A stretch of 64,000 nucleotides of DNA from an uncultured Bacilli bacterium (GTDB lineage: Bacteria > Bacillota_I > Bacilli_A > RF39 > UBA660): the NCBI GenBank assembly GCA_934167485.1, contig CAKPKL010000003.1:7153-71152 (forward strand), in the 5' to 3' direction. The notes beneath the pieces were generated by a model. It was not told the DNA's origin and ran no database searches. It saw only the letters and a list, made by a program, of their open reading frames with translations. The translations under genes and the position numbers were made by a program. Of this stretch, positions 5,392 through 18,356 are shown one piece after another; the stretch's first letter is position 1, and each line of letters starts with the position of its first letter.

Positions 5392-7554
5392 TTAGATTTT
5401 TTTAGGATTTATATCTATATCAAGTACTATATCATTTAACTGTTTTGATTTATCTGTTATAAATTTTAAATTATCATATATTTGTTTTAAATTTTTATAT
5501 TTAATAATTATTTGAATATAGTATTTATTATATATTTTAGGTATTGTACTTGCAGATGGGCCTAAAATTATTATATCTTTTGTATTTGTTTTTAAGTATT
5601 CTTTTATCTTGTTTACCTCTTTAAATAGTTTTTCATAATTAGTTCCATTTAATTTAATTAAACAAAGATTATAGTAAGGTGGATATTTTAATTTTTTTCT
5701 TATACTCATATCCTCATTATAAAAACTTAAATAATCATGATTACTAGCGCATATTATACTATAATGTTTAGTATTAAAACATTGAATTATTACTTTACCA
5801 GGTTTAGTAGATCTACCACTTCTACCAGCAACCTGATTTAGTAAAGAATAAGTTCTCTCACCACTTCTATAATCTGGTATATTTAATGTAGCATCACCAT
5901 TTATAACTCCTACTAGTGTGACATCATCAAAATCAAGTCCCTTAGAAATCATTTGTGTTCCGATTAAAATATTATACTTTTTATTTCTAAAATCATTTAC
6001 TATTCTTTCATGACTTCCTTTTCTTCTTGTTGTATCAATATCCATTCTAATAGTTTTAGCTTTATCAAAAAGATTGTTTACCTCTTCTTCTAATTTCTCA
6101 GTACCTATACCAAAATCATTAATTCTATCACTATTACATTCTGGACATCTATTTGGTTTATAAGTAGTATAATTACAATAATGACAATTAAGTTTATTAC
6201 CCATTTTATGATAAGTAAGTGGTATATCACAGTTTGGACACTTAATAACACTCCCACAATCTTTACAAGTAATAGTAGTAGAATAACCTCTTCTATTTAA
6301 TAAAAGTATTACCTGTTCATTCTTGTTTAATCTATCCGTTATATCATAAATAAGTTCATTAGATAATATTCTATTACCTTTTTTTATTTCAGTTTTCATA
6401 TCTATTATTTTTACTAAAGGTAAATTTTTATTAACTCTTGTTTTTAAAGTAAGTAATTTATATGCACCTGTACAAGCTCTAGTATAACTTTCAATAGAAG
6501 GAGTAGCACTTCCAAGTATTAATGGGCAATTATAAGTTTTAGCTCTCTTGATTGCAATATCAACTGCATTATATCTAGGATTATTATCTTGCTTATATGT
6601 ATCTGAATGTTCCTCATCTAATATAATTAACCCAATATTAGTAAAAGGCGCAAATACGGCACTTCTTGCTCCTATTACTATTTTAACTTCTCCCCTTAAA
6701 ATCTTTCTCCATTCATCATACTTTTCTCCATCTGATAACGCACTATGAAGAACAGCTATAGAACTTTTAAATCTACTTTTGAAAATATTTACTAATTGTG
6801 GAGTTAAACTAATTTCTGGAACAAGGACAATAACCTCTTTTCCATTTTTTAAGACTTCTTCTATTATATGCATATAAACTTCAGTTTTACCACTACCAGT
6901 AACTCCAAATAGTAAATATGGATTAAATTCATTTAAAGAGTTTAAAACTTCATCTACTACATTTTGTTGTTCTTCATTTAATATAACTTGTTTATCTTTA
7001 TAATTAGTACTTAGATTAGTTCTATAAACTTCTTCTTTAATCTCTTTTACTATATTATTTTTTATTAAAGTATTAATACTACTAACTGATATTTTAGTTA
7101 ATTCACTTTTTAATACTTTACCATTTTTTAATAAATCAATTATTTCTTTTTGATTATCATTGCGAGGAATATAATCCTTATTAGTAAGTTCTATATATGT
7201 TACAAATTTCTTATTAATATTAAAATCCTTATGAGCTTTTAAAGCACTTGGTAACATAGTTTGATAAGCACTTATCAAATTACATAAAGTACGACTACTG
7301 ATATATTTACCTAATTCAAGCATTTCTTTATTTAAAACCGGTTCTTCATCTATTACTTCTATAATTGATTTTAATTCATAATCTACATTTATATTGTTAT
7401 AAGTATTCAAAACAAATCCTTCTAATTTTTGTCTACCAAATGGAACTAGAACTCTTTTACCTATTAAATTACTATTAATATTATCAGGTATAATATAAGT
7501 AAATGTTTTATCTATTTTTTTTGTTTTAAGTTCTACAAGTACATCAGCATACAT
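5392..7554 (-). CDS. priA: primosomal protein N' (PriA helicase)
   Basis: Walker A GVTGSGKTEVY, DEAH-like LIILDEEHSD, and zinc-finger insertion CKDCGSVIKCPNCDIPLTYH...CHYCNY...CPECNS. 720 aa. Confidence 0.85.
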   Translation of the reverse strand: MYADVLVELKTKKIDKTFTYIIPDNINSNLIGKRVLVPFGRQKLEGFVLNTYNNINVDYELKSIIEVIDEEPVLNKEMLELGKYISSRTLCNLISAYQTMLPSALKAHKDFNINKKFVTYIELTNKDYIPRNDNQKEIIDLLKNGKVLKSELTKISVSSINTLIKNNIVKEIKEEVYRTNLSTNYKDKQVILNEEQQNVVDEVLNSLNEFNPYLLFGVTGSGKTEVYMHIIEEVLKNGKEVIVLVPEISLTPQLVNIFKSRFKSSIAVLHSALSDGEKYDEWRKILRGEVKIVIGARSAVFAPFTNIGLIILDEEHSDTYKQDNNPRYNAVDIAIKRAKTYNCPLILGSATPSIESYTRACTGAYKLLTLKTRVNKNLPLVKIIDMKTEIKKGNRILSNELIYDITDRLNKNEQVILLLNRRGYSTTITCKDCGSVIKCPNCDIPLTYHKMGNKLNCHYCNYTTYKPNRCPECNSDRINDFGIGTEKLEEEVNNLFDKAKTIRMDIDTTRRKGSHERIVNDFRNKKYNILIGTQMISKGLDFDDVTLVGVINGDATLNIPDYRSGERTYSLLNQVAGRSGRSTKPGKVIIQCFNTKHYSIICASNHDYLSFYNEDMSIRKKLKYPPYYNLCLIKLNGTNYEKLFKEVNKIKEYLKTNTKDIIILGPSASTIPKIYNKYYIQIIIKYKNLKQIYDNLKFITDKSKQLNDIVLDIDINPKKI

Positions 7555-12908: not shown

Positions 12909-14597
12909 TCATTCATTACCTAACTTTTTACCTATTTTATAAAAAAGTGTATCTTTTTTATTTAAATCATTATAATTACCATTTTCTACAATAATACCAT
13001 CTTTAATTACATATATACTGTCAAATTGTTTTAACAAATCTACTCTATGAGTTACTAAAATAACTGTTTTATTCTTTAAACAATCTAAAAGTAAATTTAA
13101 AACTATCATTTCATTTTGATTATCTAGTGCAGAAGTAGCCTCATCCAAAATGATTAAATCAGAATTGTCAAAAAATAATCTTGCTAAGGCTATCCTTTGT
13201 CTCTCTCCACCCGACAAAAGAATTCCCTTTTCACCTATTTCTGTATCTAAACCATTTTCCAACTTATTATAGAATTCAGATAAATTTAGTTTTTTTAATA
13301 CTTTGATAATTTCTTTATCTGGAATATTTTGATCAAATATTATATTTTCCCTTAGTGTTCCATCAAATAGTGGAGATTCTTGAGAAACATATGAAATAGA
13401 GTCATATAAGGTATTTAAATTGATACTTTGTAACTTATCCTTTCCAATATATACTTTCCCAGCTGTTGGTTTTAAAAGGCCTAATATTAATTTTAATATT
13501 GTAGATTTACCACTACCACTAGATCCAACTATAGCAATTTTTTTCTTTGACATAATTTCCATATTTATATCTTTCAAAACTAAATTTTTATTATATTTAT
13601 ATTTTAAAGAATCAATAATAATGTTTTTATCTTTAATTTTAACTTTTTTACCATTTGTTAATTGCATATCATCATCCAAATTCAAAAATTCTATATACCT
13701 ATTCATCACAATTTTATCAAGTTTATAATCAACATATATAACATTAAAAATAGCGATTGGTTCATAAGCTTTACCTAATAAGGTTATTAATGCTACTACT
13801 GATCCTATAGATAACTTATTTGATAATATTGCATATATAAGAACAGTTATTTTTATAATCCCAACTAATAATGCAAATATTGTAAAAAAAGCTTCATGAA
13901 CTAAAGTTATCTTTATTTTATTATTAACAATTTCGTTTATATTATTATTACATTTTTCTATTTCTTTTCTATATTTTTTATTAATTCTGAAAGATATTAA
14001 TTCTTGAAAACCTCTGATTAAATATTTATTCATATTTTCTTCGTTTTCTACAATACTTTCCTTTAGTTTATAAAGTTTAATTATTATAATTTTAGTTATT
14101 ATAAAAACTAATACATACCCTATAAAAACAACTAATGCAATTTTAAAATCAATCATAAATATAAAAACTAAACTAGATATCATTGTAGGCAACAATTCCC
14201 TAAAAATTCTAAAATAAAATTCATATACTACATCTCTTGCTGCTACAGATCCATTTTCAACTTTTTGAGTTAATTTACCTAAACCTAATTTTTGATATTT
14301 TGAATAATCTATCTTAGATACTTTTTTCAGTGCCGAAAGTTTAAAATCTAAATATAATTTATTTTGTAAATAAACACTTGGATAATTTTCTAAATAAGAA
14401 AAAATTATATACATTATCATAAGAAAGCCGTACAAAATTATCATTTTGAAAGTTAAATCTCCCATATTAAATTTATCTAATATAATTTGAAATAATTTAA
14501 TATTATACGTTCCTAGAACCGATAAAAATATTCCCAATAGAATATATAGAAATATAATTTTTTTATTATTACTCAATGTTTGTTTTATATAATTCAT
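12909..14597 (-). CDS. ABC exporter, fused permease/ATP-binding protein
   Basis: N-terminal 6-TM domain. Walker A GSSGSGKST, ABC signature LSGGERQRIALARLFF, Walker B LIILDEATSALD. Confidence 0.8.
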   Translation of the reverse strand: MNYIKQTLSNNKKIIFLYILLGIFLSVLGTYNIKLFQIILDKFNMGDLTFKMIILYGFLMIMYIIFSYLENYPSVYLQNKLYLDFKLSALKKVSKIDYSKYQKLGLGKLTQKVENGSVAARDVVYEFYFRIFRELLPTMISSLVFIFMIDFKIALVVFIGYVLVFIITKIIIIKLYKLKESIVENEENMNKYLIRGFQELISFRINKKYRKEIEKCNNNINEIVNNKIKITLVHEAFFTIFALLVGIIKITVLIYAILSNKLSIGSVVALITLLGKAYEPIAIFNVIYVDYKLDKIVMNRYIEFLNLDDDMQLTNGKKVKIKDKNIIIDSLKYKYNKNLVLKDINMEIMSKKKIAIVGSSGSGKSTILKLILGLLKPTAGKVYIGKDKLQSINLNTLYDSISYVSQESPLFDGTLRENIIFDQNIPDKEIIKVLKKLNLSEFYNKLENGLDTEIGEKGILLSGGERQRIALARLFFDNSDLIILDEATSALDNQNEMIVLNLLLDCLKNKTVILVTHRVDLLKQFDSIYVIKDGIIVENGNYNDLNKKDTLFYKIGKKLGNE

Positions 14598-14869
14598 ACA
14601 ATCACCTTACTTTTAGTTTTTATAAATCACCATTATAAAAATATATTTTAAGTGCATCTTCAGTATATTTTGGTTTAGAAACATCTATGTCCAAATACTT
14701 ACCAATATAATATATAATAAATTGGGATGCTATAAGTAAATCAAACTCAGCTAAAATATATTGTTTTGACTTTTAAAATTATTAATTTTCTTTTATTACA
14801 TTTTGAATCACAATGTCATTTGGACCAAAGAAAAATATATTGAAAATAAAATGATTTATATTTATTTAC

Positions 14870-15373
14870 TTATTCTATTTGTTCTAACATTTTCTTTTTT
14901 AAGTTATCTATATCTGTAAAAAATAAATTAGTTCCCCTTTTTTTTAGTCCAATCATATTTTTAAATAAACTTTTTATCTCATCTTGTAAATCAGTTGGAA
15001 CATTTAATGGAACTCCATCAACAGTATGTACATGATCTATATATTTTTCTAATGTAGGGAATGCATTTTGAAGAAGTATTGCTGCCTCTTCATCTGCTAT
15101 TTTTCTAATTATAATTGTATTACAAAATCCATATCGTCCTATTTTCTTATCAATTATCTTTTTATATTTATCTACTTTAGAACTTATTGGTATAAACCAT
15201 AAAATACTTTTATCTCTAATCGTAAAATAAGTTGGTCTTTTTTTACCTTTTTCATGATTTTGCATTAAACTATCATCATCTACAATATCGAAATATTCAT
15301 CTTTAATATGATATAAATAACCTGTCTTTATTTCCAAGTACATCATCTCCATATATAATATATCACAAAACAA
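14870..15373 (-). CDS. ToxN/AbiQ-like type III toxin (endoribonuclease) candidate
   Basis: 167 aa. Central motif KKRPTYFTIRDKSILWFIPISSKVDKYKK resembles the ToxN/AbiQ RP....Y.APLSSPKPKH core. Preceded by tandem repeats plus a terminator. Confidence 0.5.
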   Translation of the reverse strand: MFCDILYMEMMYLEIKTGYLYHIKDEYFDIVDDDSLMQNHEKGKKRPTYFTIRDKSILWFIPISSKVDKYKKIIDKKIGRYGFCNTIIIRKIADEEAAILLQNAFPTLEKYIDHVHTVDGVPLNVPTDLQDEIKSLFKNMIGLKKRGTNLFFTDIDNLKKKMLEQIE

Positions 15374-15415
15374 AAGAAAACTCCATCATACGATGAAGTT
15401 ATTCTACATTTTCAA

Positions 15416-15512
15416 CCAGGATCATTTATTAGTCGCACCACCTGGAAGCGAAAAACATTGTCGCCTGGAATCATTTATTATTCGCGCCATCCAGAAGCGA
15501 AAAACATTTTCA
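15416..15512 (-). ncRNA. candidate type III antitoxin RNA (ToxI/antiQ-like); two ~48-nt tandem pseudo-repeats
   Basis: ccaggatcatttattagtcgcaccacctggaagcgaaaaacattg and cctggaatcatttattattcgcgccatccagaagcgaaaaacatttt, each with an internal ccagg/cctgg inverted repeat. GC-rich island in AT-rich DNA, immediately upstream of the ToxN-like ORF. Confidence 0.45.
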
Positions 15513-15531
15513 CACTTTTCAGTGCAATATA

Positions 15532-15560
15532 AATATACTACATTTTTATGAAAATGTCAA
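15532..15560 (-). promoter_or_regulatory. consensus promoter TTGACA-17-TATATT upstream of the repeat array and toxin ORF
   Basis: Minus strand reads ttgacattttcataaaaatgtagtatatt, about 20 nt before the first repeat. Confidence 0.5.
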
Positions 15561-15725
15561 CTATAGTATACATTTATAGTATATTCCCAAAAAATATTAT
15601 TATTAATTTTTTAAGTAATTTTTGCCATTAATGTTAGAAAAAAAGAAATAAAAAAAAGACCAAAATTTTGAAATCTTGGTCTAATTTATATATTTTTATA
15701 TAATAACAAGTTACCTTTAAAACTA

Positions 15726-18356
15726 TTAATTTTCTTTTTCTTTTACTACAGCTTGTGCAGCAGCAAGACGAGCTAATGGAACTCTAAATGGACTACAAGA
15801 TACATAATCAAGACCTACTCTATGGCAGAATTCAACACTACTTGGTTCTCCGCCATGTTCTCCACATATACCCATATGAATATCTGGACGAGTTTGTTTT
15901 CCTAATTTAGCAGCCATTTCTACTAATTTTCCAACTCCATTTTGATCTAGTTTAGCAAATGGATCATTTTCAAAAATTCCTTTAGCATAGTATTCATTTA
16001 AGAATTTAGCAGCATCATCTCTTGAGAATCCAAATGTCATTTGAGTTAAATCGTTTGTACCAAATGAGAAGAATTCTGCTTCTTTAGCTATTTCATCAGC
16101 TGTTACAGCTGCTCTTGGTATTTCAATCATAGTACCAACATGATACTCTAATTTAACTCCAGCATCAGCTATAACTTTATCTGCAGTATCAGTTACTACT
16201 TTCTTAACATATTTAAGTTCATTAACATCTCCAACTAGTGGAATCATTATTTCAGGAGTAACATTCATTCCTTTTTTATTTACATTGATTGCAGCTTCAA
16301 TAACAGCTCTAGTTTGCATTCTTGCAATTTCTGGATAAGTAATAGCAAGTCTACATCCACGATGTCCCATCATTGGATTGAATTCTTTTAATGATTCAAC
16401 TCTCTCTTTTAAAGCTTCAAAACTCATACCTAAAGATTCTGCTAAAGGTTTAATTTCTTCATCTGTATGAGGTAAGAATTCATGTAATGGTGGATCTAAG
16501 TAACGAATTACAACTGGATCTCCTTCCATTGCCTCAAATAATCCTTCAAAATCTTTTCTTTGATATGGTAAGATTTTTTCAAGAGCTTCTTCACGTTTTT
16601 CAACTGTATCTGCAGCTATCATTCTACGGAAGTTAAATATTCTTTCTTCTTCAAAGAACATGTGTTCTGTACGGCAAAGACCAATTCCTTCAGCACCAAA
16701 TTTACGAGCTTGAATTGCATCTCTTGGTGTATCAGCATTAGTTCTAACTTTAAGTCTTCTAACACTATCAGCCCATCCCATAAATGTTTCAAAATCACCA
16801 CTTATTTCAGGAGCAACAGTTTTAACTTGTTCACCATAAACATTACCAGTAGAACCATCTAAGCTCATCCAGTCTCCTTCATGATATACTTTACCATCTT
16901 TTGTTTTAACTGTCTTAGCTTCTTCATCTATTACAAGTTCACCACATCCAGAAACACAGCAAGTACCCATACCACGAGCAACTACTGCAGCATGACTTGT
17001 CATACCACCACGTATTGTTAATATACCATGTGCGATATTCATTCCTTCAATATCTTCTGGAGAAGTTTCAAGTCTAACAAGTAAAATATCACTTTCACCA
17101 TTTTTGCTAGCTTCCATTACATCTTCAGCTGTAAAATAAATTTTACCTGTTGCAGCACCTGGTGATGCAGCAAGACCTTGAGCTACTACTTTAGCTTCTT
17201 TAAGTGCTTTTTGATCAAAATTTGGATGTAATAATTGATCTAATTGTTTTGGTTCTACTTTAAGTAAAGCCTCTTCCTTAGAAATCATTCCTTCATTTAC
17301 TAAATCAACAGCAATCTTTAATGCAGCTTGAGCAGTTCTTTTACCATTTCTTGTTTGTAACATGAAAAGTTTTCCATTTTCTATAGTAAATTCCATATCT
17401 TGCATATCTTTATAGTGATCTTCAAGAATTCCACAAATTTTAACAAATTCATCATAGCACTCTGGCATAGTTTCCTTTAATGTTGCGATTGGTTGTGGAG
17501 TACGAATACCAGCAACAACGTCCTCACCTTGAGCATTCATTAAATATTCACCAAATAGTGCTTTTTCTCCTGTAGCAGGATTTCTTGTAAATGCAACACC
17601 TGTACCACAGTCATCACCGCGATTACCATAAACCATTTCTTGAACGTTTACAGCAGTTCCCCAACTAGATGGAATATCATTAAGTCTACGATAAGTAATA
17701 GCTCTATCATTATTCCAACTTCTGAATACAGCTTTTACAGCTTCCATTAATTGTTCTTTTGGATCTTGTGGGAATTCAACTCCAGCATGATTTTTATATT
17801 CATCCTTATAAATTTCTACAACTTCCATTAAATCTTCAGCAGTAAGTTCTGTATCAAATTCTACTCCTTTTTCCTCTTTGATTACATCAAATTTTCTTTC
17901 AAAAGAGCTCTTTGGAAATCCCTTAACTACATCTGCAAACATTTGAATAAATCTTCTATAACTATCATATACAAATCTTGCATTATTTGTAGCCTTAGCA
18001 AATCCTTTTGCTACCTCATCATTTAAACCTAGGTTTAAAACAGTATCCATCATACCTGGCATAGATGCTCTAGCACCACTTCTTACAGATACTAACAATG
18101 GATTTTCCATATCTCCAAATTTTTTACCTGTTTCACTTTCCAAAGCTTCCAAATGGTCTAATATTTCTTTTTTAATTTCATTAGAAATATCTTCACCATC
18201 ATCATAATACTTAATACAAGCTTCAGTAGTAACAGTAAATCCTCTTGGAACTGGAAGTCCAATTCCTGTCATCTCAGCAAGGTTAGCACCTTTACCACCT
18301 AACAAGTTACGCATGTCTTTGTTACCTTCTTTAAAGGCATAAACATATTTCGTCAT
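15726..18356 (-). CDS. ppdK: pyruvate, phosphate dikinase
   Basis: MTKYVYAFKEG...LLGGKGANLAEMT N-terminus. Catalytic-His region GGMTSHAAVVARGMG. PEP-utilising C-terminal domain. 876 aa. Confidence 0.9.
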   Translation of the reverse strand: MTKYVYAFKEGNKDMRNLLGGKGANLAEMTGIGLPVPRGFTVTTEACIKYYDDGEDISNEIKKEILDHLEALESETGKKFGDMENPLLVSVRSGARASMPGMMDTVLNLGLNDEVAKGFAKATNNARFVYDSYRRFIQMFADVVKGFPKSSFERKFDVIKEEKGVEFDTELTAEDLMEVVEIYKDEYKNHAGVEFPQDPKEQLMEAVKAVFRSWNNDRAITYRRLNDIPSSWGTAVNVQEMVYGNRGDDCGTGVAFTRNPATGEKALFGEYLMNAQGEDVVAGIRTPQPIATLKETMPECYDEFVKICGILEDHYKDMQDMEFTIENGKLFMLQTRNGKRTAQAALKIAVDLVNEGMISKEEALLKVEPKQLDQLLHPNFDQKALKEAKVVAQGLAASPGAATGKIYFTAEDVMEASKNGESDILLVRLETSPEDIEGMNIAHGILTIRGGMTSHAAVVARGMGTCCVSGCGELVIDEEAKTVKTKDGKVYHEGDWMSLDGSTGNVYGEQVKTVAPEISGDFETFMGWADSVRRLKVRTNADTPRDAIQARKFGAEGIGLCRTEHMFFEEERIFNFRRMIAADTVEKREEALEKILPYQRKDFEGLFEAMEGDPVVIRYLDPPLHEFLPHTDEEIKPLAESLGMSFEALKERVESLKEFNPMMGHRGCRLAITYPEIARMQTRAVIEAAINVNKKGMNVTPEIMIPLVGDVNELKYVKKVVTDTADKVIADAGVKLEYHVGTMIEIPRAAVTADEIAKEAEFFSFGTNDLTQMTFGFSRDDAAKFLNEYYAKGIFENDPFAKLDQNGVGKLVEMAAKLGKQTRPDIHMGICGEHGGEPSSVEFCHRVGLDYVSCSPFRVPLARLAAAQAVVKEKEN

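Follow-up and report, generated by a model that had tools for sequence, protein, structure and literature searches.

The 64,000-nt stretch of DNA analyzed here (the window; all coordinates are positions in it) derives from an uncultured low-GC gut Bacilli lineage and carries, on its minus strand, a promoter, an 18-nt 5′ hairpin, two 49-nt repeats with a partial third, an intrinsic terminator, a GGAG ribosome-binding site (RBS) and an open reading frame (ORF) for a toxin, in this order. The locus is very probably a complete chromosomal type III toxin–antitoxin (TA) module of the CptIN family, real but ordinary, in which the repeats constitute the antitoxin RNA (CptI) and the ORF is the toxin gene (cptN). 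A preliminary description of the window had recognized the type III arrangement, with promoter, tandem RNA repeats, terminator and toxin all on the minus strand; this arrangement is present as described, and every element listed there was found close to the position given for it. However, its assignment of the module to the ToxIN/AbiQ family did not hold, as both a curated NCBIfam equivalog and the solved structure 4RMO place the toxin in the CptIN family and the Pfam and PADLOC scans returned no match. The CptIN family and the recognizable CptI antitoxin are already known, and the locus is a further member. The family membership and fold of the toxin, the repeat array, the conserved pairing of its pseudoknots, the terminator and the conservation of the whole layout are established by the analyses below.

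Identity and start codon of the toxin

The toxin ORF was recognized by the NCBIfam equivalog NF047359 (type III toxin-antitoxin system CptIN family toxin) over profile positions 1–150 of 150 (E 3.2e-47; 160.1 bits against a curated cutoff of 90 bits), which was its only significant NCBIfam match. Among solved structures, the only real sequence match found by phmmer was 4RMO, the CptN of Eubacterium rectale (E 7.6e-22, residues 17–156 of the 167-aa ORF), and scans against PADLOC and against Pfam-A, which we take to hold a ToxN-type model, found no family at E ≤ 1. An AlphaFold model, built on an alignment of 44 diverse family members without a PDB sequence row, reached a mean pLDDT of 94.8, and Foldseek placed 4RMO first among its structural matches (TM 0.82, E 5e-13, 32% identity) and AbiQ second (4GLK; TM 0.74, 13% identity), followed by MazF and CcdB. 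The model thus has the CptN fold, which consists of a twisted beta core surrounded by helices and is akin to those of ToxN and Kid/MazF. Combined, the NF047359, 4RMO and Foldseek results indicate that the toxin is CptN and has only the fold in common with ToxN/AbiQ. The preliminary description had seen a ToxN/AbiQ endoribonuclease signature in the core of the ORF; this has no counterpart in a sequence-family match, and the likeness to AbiQ lies at the level of the fold. In an alignment of 45 family members with the window protein as the reference row, the conserved residues are Y9, P35, W47, P50, S52, K57, L88, Q90 and P94 (window numbering), of which K57 and P94 are family-invariant; all of them are present in the window protein, and they include the Ser-Ser of the published Ser-Ser/Thr-Arg active-site triad.

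The longest ORF, at 14870–15373, encodes 167 aa from a TTG at 15373. It contains the peptide quoted in the preliminary description, but the start proposed there is probably not the one used: the most likely start of cptN is the TTG at 15337, giving 155 aa, because the alignments with both the profile and the solved homolog begin at residue 17–18 of the 167-aa ORF, the GGAG is spaced accordingly, the aligned codon is ATG in 74 and GTG in 2 of 79 related loci, and the identical protein, as annotated on four public contigs, has 155 aa. The related loci were obtained by scanning one genome per species and keeping the best 80 loci (L001–L080). A second cptN was considered at 7371–7060 and rejected, since this tblastn hit (E 3.4) is a chance match inside a 720-aa ORF (5392–7554), which is presumably a PriA-type helicase; the window thus contains no second cptN.

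Antitoxin repeats and transcription signals

The two repeats, R1 (AAAUGU...GGCGA) and R2 (CAAUGU...GUUGA), whose boundaries were placed to match the known cleavage site of CptI, are 78% identical, and their period of 49 was the sole standout among shifts of 30–69, with a best-window repeat identity of 0.80, while 200 shuffles reached at most 0.57. The preliminary description was right in reporting two tandem copies and slightly off in their period, which it put at about 48 nt. It also correctly identified a GC-rich island, with 42% G+C in the repeats versus 25% in the whole window, and ccagg/cctgg inverted repeats, whose arms make the stem S2 described below. Tandem Repeats Finder did not detect the 49-nt array, because it has two copies only, at 78% identity; no further copies of the repeat core were found elsewhere in the window, and a search of Rfam at E ≤ 10 over 14300–16000 returned only chance matches (SpF39, ctRNA_p42d, snoZ163 and ncr952), far below the gathering scores. 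The start of a third unit (6–9 nt) completes the last GA↓AAAUG junction (the arrow marks the cleavage position) on the downstream side and is kept in relatives.

Two tandem units were found in all related loci with enough upstream sequence, except L049 and L071, which have one each. L062 has lost the end of R2 and the 5′ half of the terminator. These three natural variants could reveal the minimal functional antitoxin. The units are 49 nt long in the window's clade and 51–52 nt in its sister clade, and hybrid arrays of a 51-nt R1 and a 49-nt R2 occur in L009, L020 and L021. The exact R2 unit is found in 42 of 72 related loci, R1 being more variable. Every R1 in the related loci starts with A and every R2 with C, which makes GA↓C the constant sequence of the internal junction; after R2 the junction reads GA↓A, and in most loci so does the one before R1.

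Each unit is predicted to form an H-type pseudoknot, in which stem S1 pairs unit positions 9–13 with 25–29 and stem S2 pairs positions 16–20 with 41–45 (R1: S1 UUCGC/GCGAA, S2 CUGGA/UCCAG; R2: S1 UCGC/GCGA, S2 CCAGG/CCUGG). Single-sequence minimum-free-energy folding of the units was no better than that of shuffles (z about 0), but such folding cannot represent pseudoknots, and the structure therefore rests on covariation. In a set of 49 distinct units, drawn from 76 loci, 96.7% of the S1 and S2 cells are paired and six of the ten pairs vary on both sides, whereas pairing falls to 30–52% in slid controls with the partners shifted by 1–3 columns. Over a whole-region alignment of 57 loci, the leader hairpin, both pseudoknots and the terminator are 95% paired, with 18 of 36 pairs varying two-sidedly, compared with 35–48% in the slid controls. 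A pseudoknot in the repeat unit, which the preliminary description had proposed to check by folding, is supported by the covariation of S1 and S2 in related loci. This comparative set provides natural covariation support for the CptI pseudoknot beyond the single crystallized example. Between R1 and R2, S2 differs by three compensatory pair changes, and this asymmetry is held in about 35 of the 57 distinct loci. That the two are kept different in this clade, with a constant GA↓C between them, could mean a heterotypic complex of one R1, one R2 and two CptN or, alternatively, an uncleaved 98-nt tandem RNA in the active site of the toxin.

The processed CptI of E. rectale, whose sequence was taken from a cloning primer in Rao et al. 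2015 (PMC4627078), reads AAGUUUACCACUGACCGAUAUGUGGUAUAUAAAUGGUCGGGUUGA and is cut at ..UUGA↓AAG.., with a 2′,3′-cyclic phosphate on A45 (PMC4627078). An alignment of R1, R2, a unit of the sister clade, three units from two distant loci and this CptI was colinear over the full length, and the shared columns comprise both stem strands, the AUAAAUG loop and the terminal GA (..UGA 3′ end). This full-length colinearity with a crystallized antitoxin indicates that the units are CptI-like and not a new repeat type, as had been supposed in the preliminary description. The invariant positions of the RNA are the 5′ tail, the A-rich loop and the UGA end, which are likely the elements recognized by the toxin.

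The consensus promoter seen in the preliminary description is well placed; it consists of TTGACA (15560–15555), a 17-nt spacer and TATATT (15537–15532), and TTGA and the −10 sequence TAGTATATT vary little or not at all among 57 related loci, with a transcription start predicted near 15525. The 3′ end of the leader hairpin coincides exactly with the first GA↓AAAUG junction, and the hairpin is found in most relatives, in which 90–93% of cells are paired and two-sided changes occur, e.g., GCUACU/AGUAGU and CCAUU/AAUGG. The terminator had previously been described as a weak hairpin followed by a U-run; hairpin and U-run are present, but nine pairs at −11.5 kcal/mol with a z-score of −4.3 do not make it weak. 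The terminator scan gave 2 sites in the region versus 0.2 expected, and in the 57 loci 95% of the terminator cells are paired and five of the nine pairs vary on both sides. Promoter, leader hairpin, terminator and RBS are common to the window's clade and the sister clade.

Between the cptI terminator and the cptN RBS sits an extended −10-like element, from which the predicted start would lie at or just before the GGAG and give a very short leader. In a sub-clade of related loci (L032, L042–L048, L053–L055, L065 and L076), an insertion of about 70 nt at this place carries a full TTGACG...TATATT promoter. The near-invariant TG-n-TA---T and the inserted promoter of the sub-clade together suggest that the toxin may have its own promoter, and the element is a possible separate promoter of cptN. 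If so, the toxin:antitoxin ratio would be set by two promoters, instead of by terminator read-through alone. The joint proposition that R1 and R2 are a fixed pair of different pseudoknots, not interchangeable repeats, and that cptN has an extended −10 promoter of its own behind the terminator is considered unlikely.

Table 1. Features of the cptIN locus in the window, in the order of transcription.
Feature	Positions	Strand	Basis
Sigma-70-type promoter of the cptI-cptN unit	15532–15560	minus	11 of 12 consensus positions
5′ leader hairpin, UUGCACU-GAAA-AGUGUGA	15510–15527	minus	−5.6 kcal/mol, z-score −4.1
CptI antitoxin repeat 1 (R1), 49 nt, AAAUGUUUUUCGCUUCUGGAUGGCGCGAAUAAUAAAUGAUUCCAGGCGA	15461–15509	minus	Direct repeat, covariation, CptI alignment
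CptI antitoxin repeat 2 (R2), 49 nt, CAAUGUUUUUCGCUUCCAGGUGGUGCGACUAAUAAAUGAUCCUGGUUGA	15412–15460	minus	Direct repeat, covariation, CptI alignment
Start of third unit, AAAUGU	15406–15411	minus	Exact 9-nt copy of UGAAAAUGU
Intrinsic terminator between antitoxin and toxin, 9-bp hairpin (15400–15379) then UUUUCUUUUGUUUU	15367–15400	minus	Terminator scan
Putative extended −10-like element, TGATATATT	15357–15365	minus	TG-n-TA---T nearly invariant in 57 loci
RBS, GGAG	15347–15350	minus	Nearly invariant in 57 loci, 9 nt before TTG
cptN, predicted CptN-family endoribonuclease, 155 aa, stop included	14870–15337	minus	NF047359, 4RMO

Distribution and genomic context

CptN genes are very frequent in uncultured gut Bacilli with small genomes. 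The collection of species-representative genomes has relatives in at least 428 stretches, and a separate search found relatives in 990 clusters at 50% identity. The exact 155-aa protein occurs in public ENA assemblies on four contigs of up to 138 kb and falls in a cluster (90% identity) with 830 members, of which 40 were read and none of these was named; the closest named record is that of Clostridium sp. CAG:914 (L066), at 93% identity. The same architecture 5′ of cptN is found in essentially all related loci with enough upstream sequence, and the whole layout, from promoter to toxin, is kept in related gut Bacilli metagenome-assembled genomes, usually just downstream of ppdK, and recurs almost unchanged in hundreds of genomes of uncultured gut Bacilli. 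On mobile elements, no CptN relative was found in the GenBank phage collection, plasmids gave six distant matches (32–39% identity, all annotated as hypothetical), and five relatives of 38–45% identity were found on predicted viral contigs of IMG/VR (L081–L085). Before each of these five cptN genes lie two non-identical CptI-like repeats of 44–46 nt, and the units of L085 are near E. rectale CptI.

In the window, ppdK (pyruvate phosphate dikinase, 18356–15726) lies upstream of the module and has its own terminator at 15682–15657, and the neighbors are of a housekeeping kind, comprising, besides ppdK, the genes of an ABC exporter, a Ham1-family protein, 5-formyltetrahydrofolate cyclo-ligase and a pilin-like protein. 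In relatives, ppdK is similar at the DNA level, and beyond it the similarity is limited to about 15610–14850, a block that begins shortly before the promoter and ends shortly after the stop codon; the downstream flank is unrelated in all loci. ppdK is found directly upstream of cptIN in 33 loci, at a median distance of 357 nt, and PPDK identity (63–88%) does not track CptN identity (68–93%). This suggests a ppdK-linked variable spot or an exchange of the cassette by recombination, and the shared block and its flanks fit a compact cassette at such a spot. Two or three tandem cptIN cassettes are present in L009 (4747–6320), L022 (4735–6350) and L068 (4715–8872). The second cassette of L009 carries the 51-nt repeats of the sister clade, and a short copy of the 3′ end of ppdK precedes it. 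Abortive-infection-like Abi_2 (PF07751) genes stand beside cptIN in about eight related loci (e.g., L061 3518–4462; L039 8188–9222). Just upstream of cptIN, another eight loci, of the L043 type, have the gene of a Y-family DNA polymerase (IMS) together with a small unknown ORF.

The preliminary description had taken the module for an inserted defense islet, on account of a short ORF remnant downstream. The islet itself is partly supported by the short shared block, the differing downstream flank and the Abi_2 genes and tandem cptIN cassettes, but the remnant has to be dropped as evidence. It is a stop-free stretch of 50 codons (14769–14620, minus strand), which has no ATG or other proper start, ends in KSKQYILAEFDLLIASQFIIYYIGKYLDIDVSKPKYTEDALKIYFYNGDL and a stop codon that is 22 nt short of the ABC exporter gene's start, and showed no similarity in the 85 fetched loci, no large database search having been made; nothing marks it as what is left of a gene.

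Mechanism, role and relation to known systems

Given its layout, its toxin family and its RNA fold, the locus is best explained by the CptIN mechanism already known. A single promoter would give an RNA of about 155 nt with the 5′ hairpin, the two CptI repeats and the terminator, and read-through of the terminator would express cptN, to which the extended −10 element may add; the product would be an endoribonuclease with a CptN/ToxN/MazF-like fold. By analogy with E. rectale, CptN would cut after the A of each ..GA↓(A/C)AAUG junction to give 49-nt units, each of which would take the form of an H-type pseudoknot with an A-rich loop, and two repeat RNAs and two CptN would then form a closed, inactive ring, as in the 2:2 complex of the E. 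rectale crystal. A shortage of antitoxin RNA, as might follow when transcription is blocked, the locus is lost or a phage infects the cell, would leave CptN free to cleave cellular or phage RNA, and growth would stop. These steps follow homology (PMC4627078, PMC5086642), by which we infer the cleavage sites, the 2:2 stoichiometry, the toxicity, the neutralization and the trigger.

Several points weigh against assigning a working CptIN module to the locus. Toxicity, RNA processing and neutralization are predicted from homology, and no Rfam family matched the repeats. The 49-nt unit exceeds by 1 nt the 40–48 nt range published in 2012 for 33 cptIN loci. Every locus has GA↓C instead of GA↓A at the internal junction, and cleavage there is not assured. 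The toxin starts with TTG, versus ATG in 74 of 79 relatives, and the E. rectale active-site residues Arg53, Ser85 and Tyr104 are replaced by Lys, Ala and His. In the 45-member alignment, the Arg53-equivalent position is variable and most members have His at the Tyr104-equivalent position, and the substitutions are therefore read as family variation rather than decay. The TTG, the three substitutions and the 78% identity of the repeats would also be expected of a decayed or silenced relic, with a non-toxic protein and diverged repeats of no relevance. Such a relic is nevertheless very unlikely: the ORF is intact and 68–93% identical to relatives in many species, with the 830-member cluster around it; the substitutions are common to most of the family; the differences between the repeats are compensatory and kept in most of the distinct loci compared; and a TTG start is normal for low-GC Firmicutes.

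Two other explanations concern the nature of the module itself. A ToxIN/AbiQ-family module with a new kind of ToxI/antiQ repeat would have the same gene order and a similar overall toxin fold, AbiQ being the second structural match; at the family level, however, this assignment is already refuted, and the explanation is hardly tenable, as the toxin has no Pfam or PADLOC match, is only 13% identical to AbiQ and strongly matches the CptIN equivalog and 4RMO, while the repeats align with CptI, not with a 34–36-nt ToxI-type unit, and matched no Rfam family. Still harder to credit is a cis-acting leader, attenuator- or riboswitch-like, of an ordinary downstream gene. A conserved structured 5′ region with a terminator right before an ORF is also the layout of an attenuation leader, but here the downstream protein is the CptN toxin, the duplicated pseudoknot unit is homologous to a crystallized antitoxin, no alternative antiterminator pairing is conserved, and Rfam returned neither a riboswitch nor a leader.

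As for the biological role of the CptIN module, phage defense by abortive infection and selfish stabilization of the locus are rated comparably likely, and the two can coexist. Defense may be put forward tentatively, at somewhat short of an even chance; abortive infection is an assumption for the CptIN family, in which it is not established, and the CptIN modules of E. rectale and Ruminococcus torques did not protect E. coli against six coliphages (PMC3401426), which argues against this role. Selfish maintenance (addiction) of the ppdK-adjacent segment is a serious possibility, although not a probable one. It accords with these negative phage tests, with the stabilization of a plasmid in E. 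coli by the E. rectale CptIN (PMC3401426, PMC4627078), with the housekeeping neighbors in the window and with the same ppdK-adjacent position in 33 loci. On the other hand, these tests were made with coliphages in E. coli, a host distant from the native one, abortion of phage infection is known of other type III families (PMC3401426), and the Abi_2 neighbors, although circumstantial, and the two or three tandem cassettes are as expected of a defense hot spot.

The main value of the analysis lies in annotation, as an unnamed ORF and an unannotated RNA array are recognized as a complete CptIN module. Since the curated equivalog NF047359 recognizes the toxin, annotation using that model should find it, while the RNA part of the module would stay unannotated. 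What is mildly new is the conserved compensating difference between the repeats, the extended −10-like element before the toxin and the recurrence next to ppdK.

The closest known system is the CptIN of E. rectale (4RMO; Rao et al. 2015, PMC4627078), which is likewise chromosomal and has two repeats, a terminator and a toxin. Its CptI shares with the units described here the succession of a 5′ single-stranded tail, S1, a short L1, S2, the return strand of S1, the AUAAAUG loop, the return strand of S2 and ..UGA. It differs in a unit of 45 nt instead of 49, in an L1 of 1 nt instead of 2 and in a shorter A-rich loop. In the window, moreover, compensating changes in the stems set the two repeats apart, the internal junction reads GA↓C and not GA↓A, Lys/Ala/His take the place of the three active-site residues, and the host belongs to an uncultured gut Bacilli lineage of low GC. 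The 5′ hairpin conserved among relatives and the extended −10-like element are named here as features of the window's locus and not as differences from E. rectale. With the cptIN family as defined from 33 loci (Blower et al. 2012, PMC3401426), the locus shares the toxin family, Firmicute hosts, a chromosomal position and about two repeats. The loci of that set, including those of Coprococcus catus and R. torques, have 1.9–3.4 repeats of 40–48 nt (PMC3401426), in contrast to the units of 49–52 nt in the window's relatives. A survey of 2025 described cptIN repeats as nearly identical and non-identical repeats as a trait of tenpIN (PMC12283969), whereas the repeats of the window are 78% identical.

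ToxIN of Pectobacterium and Bacillus and AbiQ/antiQ of Lactococcus resemble the locus in gene order, in toxin fold and in having an endoribonuclease that processes, and is inhibited by, a pseudoknotted repeat RNA. They differ in that no sequence-family match links their toxins to that of the window, which has two CptI-like units of 49 nt, whereas ToxI units of 34–36 nt occur in 2.8–5.5 copies and form triplex-type pseudoknots and a 3:3 complex, compared with 2:2 in CptIN (PMC5086642). Abortive-infection activity is demonstrated for ToxIN/AbiQ and not for CptIN. TenpIN is also a type III module with few, long repeats, which are non-identical in many tenpIN loci (PMC12283969), but it has a toxin of another family: no TenpN-type match was found, CptIN being the sole significant NCBIfam family. 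The locus thus presents three variations on the type III scheme, i.e., a non-identical repeat pair, an internal GA↓C junction and a possible separate promoter of the toxin, all of which lie within the CptIN family and leave the current understanding of type III systems unchanged.

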